Shown here: positions 33,020 to 59,079 of the stretch, one piece after another
Layout: each line of letters opens with the position of its first letter
Position numbering within the stretch: position 1 is the first letter of the stretch
Virus record (IMG/VR): IMGVR_UViG_3300006056_000001
Location: 64,001-128,000 of that record
Direction: 5' to 3' (one strand)
From: a virus
Taxonomy: Duplodnaviria > Caudoviricetes
DNA: 64,000 bases
Position numbers and translations under genes: made by a program
The notes under the pieces: generated by a model
What the model was told of the DNA's origin: nothing
Databases searched by the model: none
The model's input: the letters and a program-made list of their open reading frames with translations, nothing else

Positions 33020-33072
33020 TGCAGATGCCAGGGATAGCCCTGGCTATACGTGCCCGTAGCTCAGTTGGTAGG

Positions 33073-33603
33073 TTAGATATAAGTTTTATTTAACCTGCCA
33101 TGTTCTTCTCTATGGCAGTTAGCACAAAGAAGAATACACTTATCTAATTCTATTTTACCTTCTATAGATAAAGGTCTTTTAGAAAATTTAGACATCTCAA
33201 AATCTTTTTCATTTTTGTTTTTATGATGAAATTCTAAAGCACCATTAAATTTATTATAACCACATATTTCACATTTACCTCCTTTATAATCTAATGCCTC
33301 TTGTTTATATTTTCTTAATCTATCAATAGCATTTCTATTGATACATTTTTTACACCAAGAACCTTGTCTTGGATGTTTTCCAGATTGAAAGTAATACTCA
33401 CCTTTAGATTTTAATATATTACAATTAGGACAAATTTTTTCTCCTATTTTATTTACTTTTTCTATATTTGATTCATTTTTCTTTATTTTATATTTAACTA
33501 AATAATATCTTATACTTGTTTGTGATTTATTTAGTTTTTTTCCTATATCTCTTTGAGATAAGTCTTGATTTATATATAAATCAATAAGTTGTTCTTTGTT
33601 CAT
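33073..33603 (-). CDS. HNH homing endonuclease with N-terminal HTH
   Basis: CEICGY..ALEFHH...ELDKCILLCANCHREEH; N-terminal LSQRDIGKKL..SQTSIRYYL. Confidence 0.88.
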   Translation of the reverse strand: MNKEQLIDLYINQDLSQRDIGKKLNKSQTSIRYYLVKYKIKKNESNIEKVNKIGEKICPNCNILKSKGEYYFQSGKHPRQGSWCKKCINRNAIDRLRKYKQEALDYKGGKCEICGYNKFNGALEFHHKNKNEKDFEMSKFSKRPLSIEGKIELDKCILLCANCHREEHGRLNKTYI

Positions 33604-33715: not shown

Positions 33716-33807
33716 TTTTGCGTAGTTAATATTCATAATTATTAACAATTGAACTAAGCTTTTAAACCGTCAATGAAGGTTCAATTCCTTCCAGGCCTAC
33801 CATTTAC

Positions 33808-52123: not shown

Positions 52124-52199
52124 AGTTGAAATTTTTGATACTGACCTTGGTAAATGCAAACCGCAAATTTGCAATTTTCTCTTGAAAAGAAAAACAACC

Positions 52200-52244
52200 A
52201 AGAAACCCCAGGGAGGTTGGATAATTCTTCCCTGGGGGTTCTTT
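52200..52244 (+). terminator. Strong GC hairpin (terminator/processing site) before tilS
   Basis: CCCCAGGGAGG/TCTTCCCTGGGG followed by T-rich tail. Confidence 0.6.
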
Positions 52245-52261
52245 ATCTTAAACACCGAAAG

Positions 52262-52897
52262 ATGATCTCACTTCAGCAAAGACTACCAGATAACAATAAG
52301 TATTTCTTTGCTTGCTCAGGAGGCGTGGACAGCATGTCTGCTCTCCATTGGATGAAACAGGGAGGAAGATTACCTTATGCAATTATTCACGTGCATCACA
52401 ATACTGGTGATTACGCTGACCGTGCCTTGGAATTTGTTAAAAGAACATATACTGAGTATTGTTTTGACCTTTTCGTCAAAAATGTGGAAGGTGTTCCGCC
52501 CCCAGGAGAATCAAAAGAAGCCTGGTGGAGAGGAGAACGATATAAACTCTTCCAAGAAGTCTTAGATGAGACTGGAAAAGATTATCCTATTGTTTTAGCT
52601 CACAATCTTGATGATTGTGTAGAACAGTATATTATGAGAACTTGTATCCGTCTTTCTAAAAATAAGCTTATCTCGTATAAAGGTCCTGCTAATACTATTA
52701 GGCCTTTTCTTACTTGGAAAAAGAGTGAAATTATTGATTATGCAAAGCGCAATAATATTGATTGGATTGAAGATCCTTCTAATACTAATCCTTGCTTTTT
52801 AAGAAACAATATTAGACATAATCTAGTACCTTTGGTAGTAAAGATGAATCCTGGGATTCATTCGCAAGTTAGAAAAATGATTTTGGATATACAATGA
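52262..52897 (+). CDS. tilS: tRNA(Ile)-lysidine synthetase (short form)
   Basis: PP-loop SGGVDS, HVHH, R..RY, AHNLDD, RPFL, WIEDPSN, RNNIRH; likely start 52262. Confidence 0.92.
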   Translation: MISLQQRLPDNNKYFFACSGGVDSMSALHWMKQGGRLPYAIIHVHHNTGDYADRALEFVKRTYTEYCFDLFVKNVEGVPPPGESKEAWWRGERYKLFQEVLDETGKDYPIVLAHNLDDCVEQYIMRTCIRLSKNKLISYKGPANTIRPFLTWKKSEIIDYAKRNNIDWIEDPSNTNPCFLRNNIRHNLVPLVVKMNPGIHSQVRKMILDIQ

Positions 52898-53407
52898 ATG
52901 ATCAATTTCTTGATATTGAAGAGCTTAAAGCTCAATTAAGTTCTATAAGAGATTATGAAAAGAACTTAGAAGCTACAATAGGACAAGCAAAAATATTAGA
53001 TAAGTTTATTACTCCAAGATGTTATCATTTAGAATTTGATGAAAACTTTACTCAGTTAATGGAACTATTTAAGAATACTAAACTAATGAAAGAATTTAAT
53101 ATCAATGTAGAATATGATCAGAATCTTGATATTACTGGGGTTTATTTAGATAAAATAAAATTCATGATGGCATATAAGCATCTTAGTTTACAAAATATAT
53201 TTAAAGAGTATTTTAAATTAGCCAAAGAAAACAAGATAGAAATATTATATGGGCCTATTAAAGGATATAAGAACGAAGACGGCAGTGATTACGAAGATTT
53301 CATCATAGACCTTAAATAAGGTCTTGTATCAGGGTATAGCTCAATGGTAGAGTACGTGGTTTGGGGCCAGTTCTCTGTATCCCAAATAATGTAGTCGCAA
53401 AGACTAC

Positions 53408-53776
53408 ATGAAACAATGTAAATACTGCCATAAAAAATACCCAGAAAATCAGTTTGGAATAGCTAAAACTACTTCAACTAAGATCTATAGACGTCAAAAA
53501 TGTAATATATGCTACGCTATTACTAAACGTAAAAACAGACATAAGAAATCTCATTGGTTAGTAGAATACAAGAAAACTTTAAAATGTAGTAATTGTTCTT
53601 ATAATGATTATAGAGGCTTAGATTTTCATCACCCTAATGGCGATAAAGAAATAGATATAGGAACCTCTATATCTAGAAGATCTATAGAAAACACTAAGAA
53701 AGAAATAGATAAATGTATTGTACTTTGTGCATGTTGTCACAGAGAACTACACTATGACGAGCGTTACGGAATATAG
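53408..53776 (+). CDS. HNH homing endonuclease inside split tRNA-Pro
   Basis: CSNCSY..GLDFHH...EIDKCIVLCACCHRELH. Confidence 0.88.
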   Translation: MKQCKYCHKKYPENQFGIAKTTSTKIYRRQKCNICYAITKRKNRHKKSHWLVEYKKTLKCSNCSYNDYRGLDFHHPNGDKEIDIGTSISRRSIENTKKEIDKCIVLCACCHRELHYDERYGI

Positions 53777-53844
53777 CACAGTTTGGCTAGTGCGTTCGCT
53801 TTGGGAGCGAAAGGTCGAAGGTTCAAATCCTTCTATTCCGACCA
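53767..53844 (+). tRNA. tRNA-Pro(TGG), intact, nested within the split copy
   Basis: TTCGC-TTTGGGA-GCGAA; CCA; overlaps HNH stop codon. Confidence 0.9.
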
Positions 53845-54183
53845 TTTCATCGTCATGATAAAGTAGAAGGTTCGAGTCCTTCTATCCTGACCAACACAAT
53901 AAAAAGAGGAACTTAAATGAACATTACTGATGTTATGAATGGTATAGTTAGTAATAAAATTGATATTGAAAAATGTCAGCAACTTATTCATCAATTTAAT
54001 AAATTAAATAAAACTAATTATTTTATTAGAGTATTAAATGTTAATAATACTGAATTAGTAGGAACATCAGATTTTAATACAAATAGAATAAATATTACAT
54101 TAGTTAATGCTATTCCTGATAAAAGTGATATTGGATATTCTAGTGGATATATTACTGCATATGATATAGGATAAATAAAATAT

Positions 54184-54256
54184 AGCAGGGAGAATCGTTA
54201 TTCAAGAAAGTCTCATAAGCTTTCCTCCGAGGGTTAGACTCCCTCCCCTGCTTCCA
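54184..54256 (+). tRNA. Atypical tRNA-Met(CAT)
   Basis: GAAAGT-CTCATAA-GCTTTC; reduced D-arm; T-loop TTAGACT; CCA. Confidence 0.6.
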
Positions 54257-54322
54257 ATAGTCAGTTAATACTAGGCAACTGCTTATCGCCGGATCCTGAC
54301 TTTAAATAAAATCCGCATTCAC

Positions 54323-54403
54323 TGCGGGATCGACAAGTCTGGTTTAAGTCAAAGGGCTCATAATCCTTCAGTTTCGTGGGTTCAAATCCCACTCCCGCTT
54401 CCA
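54323..54403 (+). tRNA. Initiator-type tRNA-Met(CAT)
   Basis: 1:72 mismatch; AAGGG-CTCATAA-TCCTT; CCA. Confidence 0.82.
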
Positions 54404-54526
54404 TTTACGCCTGGGTTGCTCCAGGACCAGTCTTGGGGTTAGACGATCCATCGACACTGGAAAGGTGAGTAATCCTTTCGGTTGTATCGAACCGGGTGGT
54501 TGTAAAAGGAAAGCCCTCTCATTTAT

Positions 54527-54603
54527 GCTCCGTTCGTCTAGTGGTCTAGGATGCGAGTTTTTCAAGCTCGAAGACGTGGGTTCGACCCCCACACGGAGTA
54601 CCA
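54527..54603 (+). tRNA. tRNA-Glu(TTC)
   Basis: CGAGT-TTTTCAA-GCTCG; CCA. Confidence 0.9.
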
Positions 54604-55437
54604 TTCATGCTGGCGAAAGGGAAACTGAGTAGCTGGCACCATCTTTAACCTTGTTTAAGGCCGGCTTAAGCCGACCAGATCAATTTGAGAATAAGGCAGA
54701 CCAAGTATAATTGTAGCTTGGTCTTTTCATTTTATGACTAAGAAAAAGAAAGCATCGGTTGTAGCTGAAGATATTCTTCATCCACAAGTTCCTCATGTAT
54801 TGACTCCAGATGGTTCTGTAGCTCAAAAGGCTATTAATGTACAGACCAGTGTCACTAAAGATGACATGGCAAGTCTTATTCATGTAAATGTTAGAACTCA
54901 GCTTAATAATGAATTAAATACTGTTTTAAATAGTATTAAGAGACTAGAAGCTAAAAAGCAGCAAGTATTTCAAAACGCACATAAAGAAATATGTGCATTA
55001 TTAATTAATAATGGTTATTTAAATCCTACTATACATATTTCTCATATGCATCTTAATTTTCAAGATTCTACAGTAAATTTAAACCATACAGATGTTGGGA
55101 TAAGAACTATTGATCAAGAATTAAGTATAAATAACAAGCTTAAAGGAAAAAGAACTACTAGAACTTCTTTAGAAAGTATAAATTATACTAATCAAGAAAT
55201 ACAAGATTATATCAAAGAAATGAACGAGCTTTTTACTCAAAAAACTAATATAGAAAGAAATCTTAATACAGCAAATAAAGAGTATATTAAAGCCAATATT
55301 ATTGCTAGCTTGATTGGTTCTTCTGATAAGGGCCAAGACTTTATCAAGAATATTTCTAATATTGGAATTAGTATTATTGAATCTCTTAAGAGTAATACTA
55401 TTCCTCTTATTGCTATTAGTCAATAATATTACTTAGA

Positions 55438-58638: not shown

Positions 58639-59079
58639 GGGAGTATAGCATAATTGGTTACTGCACTAGATTGTCGATCTTATTAACTATTGCAATCGTA
58701 TATGATTACATGCCTAGTAAAGATCCAGAAATAAGACGTGCTACTTGGAATAAATGGTATAAGAAAAATAAAGCTATTCATCATAAAAGGTCTAAAGATT
58801 GGACAGATCGTAGAAGAAAAGAATTAAGAATTTTAATAAATAAATATAAAAGCACACATCCTTGTAATAACTGCGGTTTTACAAATCCTGTAGCTTTAGA
58901 TTTTCATCATATAGATGTTTTACAAAAAGATATAGAAGTATCTATAGCTATAAATAGAACTTGGTCAAATAAAAGACTAGAGAAAGAAATAGCTAAATGT
59001 ATAGTTTTATGTTCAAATTGTCATAGAATAGAACATAATAAATAGACAATAATAGGTTCGAGTCCCATTACTCCCGCCA
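58639..59079 (+). tRNA. Split tRNA-Asp(GTC): 5' half 58639-58680, 3' half 59043-59079
   Basis: GGGAGTA/TACTCCC-GCCA; CTAGA-TTGTCGA-TC|TAG; interrupted by HNH ORF. Confidence 0.8.
58710..59045 (+). CDS. HNH homing endonuclease inside tRNA-Asp
   Basis: CNNCGF..ALDFHH...EIAKCIVLCSNCHRIEH; likely start MPSKD at 58710. Confidence 0.88.
   Translation: MPSKDPEIRRATWNKWYKKNKAIHHKRSKDWTDRRRKELRILINKYKSTHPCNNCGFTNPVALDFHHIDVLQKDIEVSIAINRTWSNKRLEKEIAKCIVLCSNCHRIEHNK

Follow-up and report, generated by a model that had tools for sequence, protein, structure and literature searches.

The DNA analysed here, a stretch of 64,000 nucleotides referred to as the window, comprises bases 64001-128000 of a 189,716-bp virus record of IMG/VR (IMGVR_UViG_3300006056_000001; Duplodnaviria, Caudoviricetes), which has direct terminal repeats and a G+C content of 34%. 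In this window, a proline tRNA gene with anticodon UGG, hereafter Pro1, is split by an insert of approximately 490 nt that contains a small HNH endonuclease gene and a second, complete tRNA-Pro(UGG), hereafter Pro2. The locus is flanked by a 141-aa open reading frame (ORF) on one side and an 85-aa ORF on the other. A sequence-only reading of this DNA had proposed a homing element that breaks tRNA-Pro and pays for its insertion with a replacement tRNA. The elements it named, namely the Pro halves, the HNH gene and the second Pro(TGG) tRNA, all lie where it had placed them.

The 5' part of Pro1 (53330-53369, plus strand) holds nt 1-41 of the old tRNA: the acceptor strand CAGGGTA, TA, the D arm GCTC/AATGGTA/GAGT, A, the anticodon stem strand CGTGG, the loop TTTGGGG, and CCA at nt 39-41. 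The 3' part (53861-53893, plus strand) holds nt 44-76, with variable loop AAGTA, T arm GAAGG/TTCGAGT/CCTTC, acceptor strand TATCCTG, discriminator A73 and CCA. Against a profile of phage tRNA-Pro genes, the 5' part matches positions 1-42 (E 3.7e-5) and the 3' part positions 44-75 (E 0.16). The halves had been described as perfectly pairing. This holds for the acceptor stem, where 53330-53336 finds its partner at 7/7 positions, except that one pair, G5-U68, is a wobble. The CG (or TG) that would close the anticodon stem, nt 42-43, is missing, unrelated sequence following the CCA. The break was read by hand, the ARAGORN joint scan being too permissive to define it. A search of metagenomes with the anticodon-arm string retrieved two intact tRNA-Pro genes (loci L095 and L096) in which D-stem and anticodon arm are exactly as in Pro1, and which continue as CCA-CG-GTGTC-GAAGG and CCA-TG-GAGTC-AAAGG, respectively. 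Since these intact genes run on from CCA, the CCA belongs to the old Pro1 and the break lies after nt 41. As candidate empty sites the two loci were rejected: they belong to unrelated tRNA clusters and are of use for the break position only.

The HNH ORF (53408-53776, plus strand) is intact and encodes 122 aa. It matches PHROG 2255, 'HNH endonuclease', with an E value of 2e-23; no Pfam match was obtained, the Pfam HNH family not being reached. Residues C60, C63, H74, H75, C103, C107, C110, H111 and H115 are invariant in the family alignment, and the protein has the arrangement of an HNH motif with CxxC/CxxC zinc ligands: C60-x2-C63, DFHH (74-75)...N78...C103-x3-C107, and C110-H111...H115. The family profile also matches the HNH domain of McrA (6ghc, E 9e-4). 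Catalytic and zinc residues are intact, and DNA cutting or nicking activity is predicted.

Pro2 (53767-53844, plus strand) is canonical, with C1-G72, A73 and an encoded CCA (ARAGORN; 69.3 bits with the Rfam tRNA model), and is the sole intact tRNA-Pro found by ARAGORN in the phage genome. As had been noticed from the sequence, its nt 8-10 form the HNH stop codon: the ORF ends ...GGA ATA TAG, corresponding to Pro2 nt 2-10, with the TAG at 53774-53776, and the overlap is 10 nt. Its divergence from Pro1, likewise remarked on before, amounts to 28/40 identical positions in the 5' half (70%) and 24/30 in the 3' half. The anticodon stems differ at every position, and the differences in the acceptor stem are compensatory (A2-U71 in Pro1 vs G-C in Pro2, and G4-C69 vs A-U). 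With the tRNA-Pro genes that follow HNH homologues in four other loci (L011, L027, L065, L035), Pro2 shares 82-89% identity, a weak indication, tRNAs being short.

The remaining parts of the insert lie at its two ends. On the left, two hairpins are predicted in the leader of the HNH gene. In the first (53360-53386, plus strand), TTTGGGG, the anticodon loop of Pro1, pairs with TCCCAAA 13 nt downstream. The window has a single TTTGGGG...TCCCAAAT motif, where 0.05 would be expected; its 13-nt spacing is as in the cyanophage S-CAM3, and its arms pair in the predicted fold. The second hairpin (53390-53408, plus strand) reads TGTAGTC-GCAAA-GACTACA, ending on the first base, A, of the HNH start codon; a TGTAG...CTACA hairpin likewise covers the HNH start codon in locus L003. 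On the right, the spacer TTTCATCGTCATGATA (53845-53860, plus strand) separates Pro2 from the 3' part of Pro1 and can form a small TCAT/ATGA hairpin. Comparable TCAT...ATGA hairpins lie directly 3' of the tRNA in L011 and L016, and judging from its sequence this spacer is probably the right end of the cassette.

Outside the HNH ORF and Pro2, only about 45 nt of the insert are left. A scan of 52800-54700 with Rfam at E values up to 1 returned tRNAs only, and no ribozyme, group I or other intron model, in agreement with the earlier view that the insert is not a self-splicing intron. No ribozyme core (P3-P8) of a group I intron was detected, the insert ends lack the terminal G or U-G pair typical of group I, and excision does not restore an intact tRNA. 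Plain excision of the insert yields no canonical tRNA, and an alternative join through the TG at 53856-53857 leaves an 8-nt variable loop. When the two Pro1 pieces were cofolded, acceptor and arm helices formed, and no helix joined the insert ends; by this cofold the locus is not a split or permuted tRNA of the archaeal type, a splicing endonuclease not having been looked for genome-wide. Pro1 could nevertheless still be working, with the 490-nt insert removed as a novel intron or the halves joined in trans, in which case the phage would have two proline tRNAs. The halves do retain all canonical tRNA features, with 7/7 pairing, and a tRNA-Asp gene split by a paralogue of the HNH gene, described below, is the phage's only tRNA-Asp and would be restored exactly by excision. 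Such processing would, however, have to operate with no ribozyme family matching at E up to 1 here or up to 10 at the Asp locus, and with neither group I-type termini nor a helix between the insert ends, within some 45 nt outside ORF and tRNA. It would leave a non-canonical anticodon stem and variable loop, and intact Pro2 makes Pro1 redundant. We consider a working Pro1 very improbable; most likely the Pro1 halves are a dead bracket and Pro2 is the working proline tRNA.

The contig derives from a metagenome, and tRNA repeats can mislead assemblers, so that two tRNA-Pro alleles of a mixed population might have been joined into a chimera. The nested layout was found with 100% identity over more than 4 kb in two further metagenome contigs from JGI assemblies (L089, L090). 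An identical HNH protein, with the same called gene order, is present on an independent ENA contig of 189,747 bp, where it is known from the protein and the gene calls. On these grounds the layout is not an assembly artefact; the two alleles, moreover, share only 70-80% identity. The probability of a chimera is very small.

A family-alignment search of IMG/VR gave 479 relatives of the HNH protein, and the best 80 loci, encoding 78 distinct proteins, were analysed by script. Among these 78 homologues, 22 abut or overlap a tRNA-Pro(UGG). The stop codon coincides with tRNA nt 8-10 at 18 of the Pro-linked loci, the overlap is 15 nt at two, and the genes abut directly at one. The first IMG/VR homologue (L003, 44% identity) ends with TAG at nt 8-10 of tRNA-Pro(UGG), and so does the HNH gene of the cultured cyanophage S-CAM3, annotated at 183804-184163 with a tRNA-Pro at 184154-184224. 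The closest homologue in a set of 5.8 billion proteins (P0002, 54% identity) has the 15-nt overlap with tRNA-Pro(UGG). Other members of the family sit likewise on tRNA-Thr(UGU), with the stop at nt 6-8, on tRNA-Asp or tRNA-Val, or just before tRNA-Leu(UAG). In all, some 20 distantly related phages, with HNH proteins that are 35-55% identical, show the overlap of ORF end and tRNA, and its constancy over this range argues that ORF and tRNA are kept together. The upstream neighbours of Pro-linked HNH genes vary, including tRNA-Val, Thr, Arg, Lys, Pro(CGG) and various ORFs. Because they differ among loci, the HNH gene is linked to tRNA-Pro and not to a genomic site. Loci L016 and L027 are 87.6% identical over a block that starts at the TATAAATA leader and stops precisely at the tRNA 3' end, and 72-74% identical in the flanks. 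The proposal that HNH gene and tRNA-Pro(UGG) form one unit is thus borne out by the recurrent overlap and by the extent of this block.

Most copies of this unit are free-standing, directly upstream of the sole tRNA-Pro, and the nested layout is the exception. A survey of phages for the half-HNH-tRNA-half arrangement had been suggested. Pieces of an older tRNA-Pro were indeed kept at 3 of about 23 loci, but both halves are present only in the window among the loci sampled. At L010, nt 1-38 of a different tRNA-Pro lie directly upstream of the HNH gene (E 1e-6), whose ORF apparently starts at a TTG within or just after this remnant. With its acceptor strand, CAGAGCG, the remnant is a better pairing partner for the 3' end of the downstream tRNA than the 5' strand of that tRNA itself, an indication that the right junction is chimeric and falls inside the tRNA. 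At L027, a 17-nt 5' stub of another tRNA-Pro allele precedes the HNH gene. The old tRNA genes are broken between nt 41 and 42 (Pro1), 38 and 39 (L010), and 40 and 41 (the Asp gene). A pattern survey for more nested copies, based on D-loop, anticodon loop and hairpin, gave at least 119 matches, and no HNH homologue was found downstream among the matches listed. One match, L145, resembles a partial duplicate of a tRNA-Pro gene and lies in GC-rich DNA.

The leaders of these genes carry a further link with the tRNA. Most Pro-linked HNH genes have TATAAATA upstream, the T4 late-promoter consensus, then a hairpin ATTTGGGA-N10-13-TCCCAAAT running into the ATG. The 5' arm of the family hairpin is the anticodon loop of tRNA-Pro, and the first leader hairpin of the window is the counterpart of this family form, TTTGGGA-N10-13-TCCCAAATG. 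Of 21 distinct Pro-associated leaders, 13 have the conserved hairpin, which the other classes lack throughout. Thr-linked HNH genes (L012, L044, L058, L060) instead have an inverted repeat on TTTGTAA, the tRNA-Thr loop, around TATAAATA and about 100 nt before the start, where Pro-linked ones (L011-L065) have TTTGGGA...TCCCAAA; the motif in the leader thus changes with the anticodon of the tRNA next to it. The cognate anticodon-loop hexamer was found upstream in 19/21 distinct Pro-linked and 4/4 Thr-linked leaders, and the hexamer of the other class in 1/21 and 1/4, counts which are inflated by kinship and effectively represent one Pro-to-Thr switch with an accompanying switch of motif. On a maximum-likelihood tree of the HNH proteins, the Thr-linked genes form one subclade nested among the Pro-linked ones. 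The tRNA-Pro label requires 5 changes on this tree, versus 19.5 when labels are shuffled (0/500 as low). In the window, the 3' arm of the module's hairpin is present, and promoter and 5' arm are replaced by the 5' half of Pro1, so that the left junction falls within the anticodon loop or stem.

The same phage has paralogues of the HNH gene. A tRNA-Asp(GUC) gene (window 58639-59079) is interrupted after nt 40, a position matching that of the Pro1 break, by a paralogous HNH ORF (58710-59045) encoding a protein 31% identical, with a weak match to Pfam HNH (E 4e-4) that is below the cut-off. Its TAG stop is formed by tRNA-Asp nt 41-43, and joining 58679 to 59043 gives a canonical tRNA-Asp. This is the only tRNA-Asp of the genome, and the insert carries no spare tRNA. 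No ribozyme or intron family was found at this locus with Rfam at E up to 10. Payment for the insertion with a tRNA, as had been proposed, is therefore not obligatory, the Asp paralogue splitting a tRNA gene with no spare. More likely, a spare tRNA is carried because the nuclease gene is welded to an allele of its own target that the enzyme presumably cannot cut.

Two further arrangements of this family were observed. In locus L056 (1831-2617), two complete tRNA-Asp(GUC) genes flank an HNH homologue, which follows the first at a distance of 52 nt and overlaps the second by 15 nt; this may be an equivalent of the Pro module that is specific for Asp. In the window, a third HNH paralogue (33073-33603, minus strand) abuts a tRNA 5' stub at 33054-33072 (GTGCCCG-TA-GCTC-AGTTGGTAG). 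It has an unusually long tRNA-Lys of 93 nt on its other side, and an orphan fragment with T arm, acceptor strand and CCA lies beyond it, at approximately 33745-33806.

We favour the interpretation, to which we give a probability of roughly 70%, that a mobile module of HNH gene and tRNA-Pro entered the resident tRNA-Pro ectopically, following a break in the anticodon arm of the latter. The insertion is not clean.

Several observations weigh against this interpretation. No close relative of the window's phage, and hence neither an empty-site allele nor a donor, was found by searching with the upstream 141-aa protein. Searches of IMG/VR with the exact strings of the Pro1 5' and 3' halves gave no close phage relative, a search with the TilS neighbour gave only relatives of 27-28% and none of them close, and the pattern of a rebuilt Pro1 had no match in metagenome contigs. 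Both Pro1 halves are undecayed, which fits a recent event but equally retention for some function. The position of the window HNH protein in the tree is poorly supported, and the inheritance of tRNA-Pro alleles does not strictly follow that of the HNH clades, one allele type being found after two HNH clades. We infer from sequence both that this HNH family cuts tRNA genes and where it cuts them. Finally, in the E. coli phage nepoznato (L093, NC_052658.1, 993-1577), an unrelated HNH gene of NUMOD4 type also ends with TAG at tRNA-Pro nt 8-10. It replaces a tRNA-Gln of the close relative Schickermooser (L094, NC_048196.1, 1421-1578), the two forming the only clean filled-versus-empty pair encountered. 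Since this HNH is unrelated and has the same overlap, the overlap alone could be a packing effect in tRNA clusters; it may in part reflect tight packing, U8-A9-G10 being a ready-made stop.

Some of these points bear on an alternative, in which the block of HNH gene and Pro2 came to lie in Pro1 by chance recombination of tRNA-like sequences within a dense tRNA cluster, or by duplication and deletion, and the HNH enzyme does not target tRNA-Pro at all. The identical overlap in nepoznato is compatible with it, as is the conjectural nature of tRNA-gene cutting by this family, and the cluster does hold other tRNA fragments, namely the stub at about 33054-33072 by the third paralogue and the 3' fragment at about 33745-33806. 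Chance would not explain, however, why the association with tRNA-Pro holds across many different flanks, why 5' pieces of older tRNA-Pro genes lie directly upstream at two further loci, why Pro1 is broken at the position of the Asp gene split by a paralogue, and why leaders carry the cognate anticodon-loop motif. We judge this alternative unlikely, and retain targeted insertion of a mobile module as the better account.

Insertion of such a module could have proceeded as follows. The module would consist of the leader hairpin, the HNH homing-type gene and a tRNA-Pro(UGG) fused to it by the 10-nt overlap, and tRNA genes would be broken close to the anticodon arm by enzymes of this family. Where the phages are related, repair from the module-bearing genome would convert the target into HNH gene plus donor tRNA allele, giving the free-standing form; such gene conversion would leave no scars, as is seen at most loci. 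In a genome devoid of homologous flanks, the ends would rather be joined through short homologies, giving the nested form. At the window locus, the module would thus have been copied into resident Pro1 behind nt 41, on the 3' side of the anticodon arm. The left join may have formed at or beside the invariant anticodon-loop heptamer, common to target and module leader hairpin. The right join would lie past the donor tRNA, possibly at CATG (53854-53857), which could be a microhomology with Pro1 nt 40-43, or with loss of two nucleotides. The overlap of ORF and tRNA would keep the nuclease gene linked to a target allele that it presumably cannot cut.

A more far-reaching scheme can be drawn, in which the module is a 'cut-and-replace' drive on one tRNA species, able to enter any allele with no need of flanking homology. 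In this scheme, the 5' arm of the leader hairpin would be the invariable heptamer of the anticodon loop, TTTGGGA in the Pro-linked genes and TTTGTAA in the Thr-linked subclade, and the heptamer would serve both as left recombination anchor and as part of a translational or late-promoter switch of the nuclease. The 10-nt overlap would weld the nuclease to an immune allele, and processing of the tRNA by RNase P would remove the HNH stop codon, throttling nuclease expression. With all its parts taken jointly, we put this scheme forward tentatively, as possible rather than probable. In phage T4, I-TevI represses its own gene through an operator resembling the homing site, and endonuclease genes are under translational control by late promoters and hairpins. 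Similarly, the leaders of the present family combine TATAAATA with a hairpin over the start codon, one arm of which copies the loop heptamer of the presumed target. Unlike the T4 case, regulation in this family is putative, and in the window the promoter has been replaced by the 5' half of the old tRNA.

The locus is part of a tRNA island of 30 kb in the window, with 24 tRNA genes and small ORFs in between. Other genes of the window specify a TilS-like PP-loop protein, Ro60 and NAD-salvage enzymes. The TilS-like protein (52154-52897; PF01171, E 2e-34) is encoded 1.3 kb upstream of a tRNA with a CAU anticodon (54184-54256), which has an aberrant D arm and was called by ARAGORN and missed by the Rfam tRNA model at E up to 1. 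This tRNA may be a lysidine-dependent tRNA-Ile2, and the TilS-like protein its modifying enzyme. Between tRNA-Met and tRNA-Glu (54404-54526) lies a G+C-rich spacer of about 120 nt, apparently structured and with no match in Rfam. TAG is rare as a stop codon in this genome (8/129 long ORFs), and both tRNA-embedded HNH genes stop at a TAG supplied by the tRNA. Suppression of TAG was considered and rejected, as the 'tRNA-Pyl(CTA)' called by ARAGORN just upstream of the window (genome 62937-63010) has AGGAGG...ATG at its end and is apparently spurious; nor did ORFs become longer to any outsized extent when TAG was read as sense.

How homing endonucleases enter unrelated genomes, and what this does to tRNA genes, is hardly documented, and the window locus is one integration product in which both scars are preserved. 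Our observations point to selfish nucleases as a driving force in the turnover of phage tRNA genes and in their horizontal spread. Turnover of this kind would explain the tRNA half-genes, and the annotations in which an ORF runs into a tRNA, of phage genomes. If the predicted cleavage holds, the family would offer natural nucleases specific for tRNA genes, with predictable targets, and the cognate anticodon-loop motif of the leaders provides a simple hypothesis for target recognition or autoregulation.

A full-text search of the literature found no description of such a nested cassette of nuclease and tRNA. The closest characterised system is SegB of phage T4, a free-standing homing endonuclease belonging to the GIY-YIG type in a tRNA gene cluster, where homing endonuclease genes have rarely been observed (PMC2330249). 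SegB recognises a conserved element of tRNA genes, the T-arm, and cuts inside tRNA genes, at the tRNA 3' ends, in phages lacking it; with an efficiency close to 100%, it is inherited along with the tRNA genes next to it, and tRNA markers of the recipient are replaced, a process termed 'intronless homing' (PMC2330249). As with SegB, the nuclease gene of the window sits among phage tRNA genes. However, its product has an HNH fold, and the breaks are in the anticodon arm rather than at the T-arm and tRNA 3' ends. SegB, moreover, is not fused to a tRNA, and no nested half-gene arrangement is described for it, whereas the window ORF is fused to a tRNA, within a nested scar and behind a leader with an anticodon-loop motif.

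Group I introns with homing endonucleases occur in the anticodon loops of bacterial tRNA genes (PMC2330249; reviewed in PMC3073962). As in these, a tRNA gene of the window carries, in its anticodon region, a mobile insert bearing a nuclease gene, and the cost to the host is neutralised. In the introns this cost is met by self-splicing of the RNA, whereas the window insert has no ribozyme and a second, complete tRNA covers the cost. In 'fractured genes', a gene is split by a free-standing homing endonuclease gene and rescued by split inteins (PMC2677866). There too, the endonuclease gene lies between the halves of a host gene, the insert is not spliced, and function is rescued by another device. 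Fractured halves, however, make their product by trans protein splicing, whereas the halves of Pro1 are most likely dead and the spare copy does the work.

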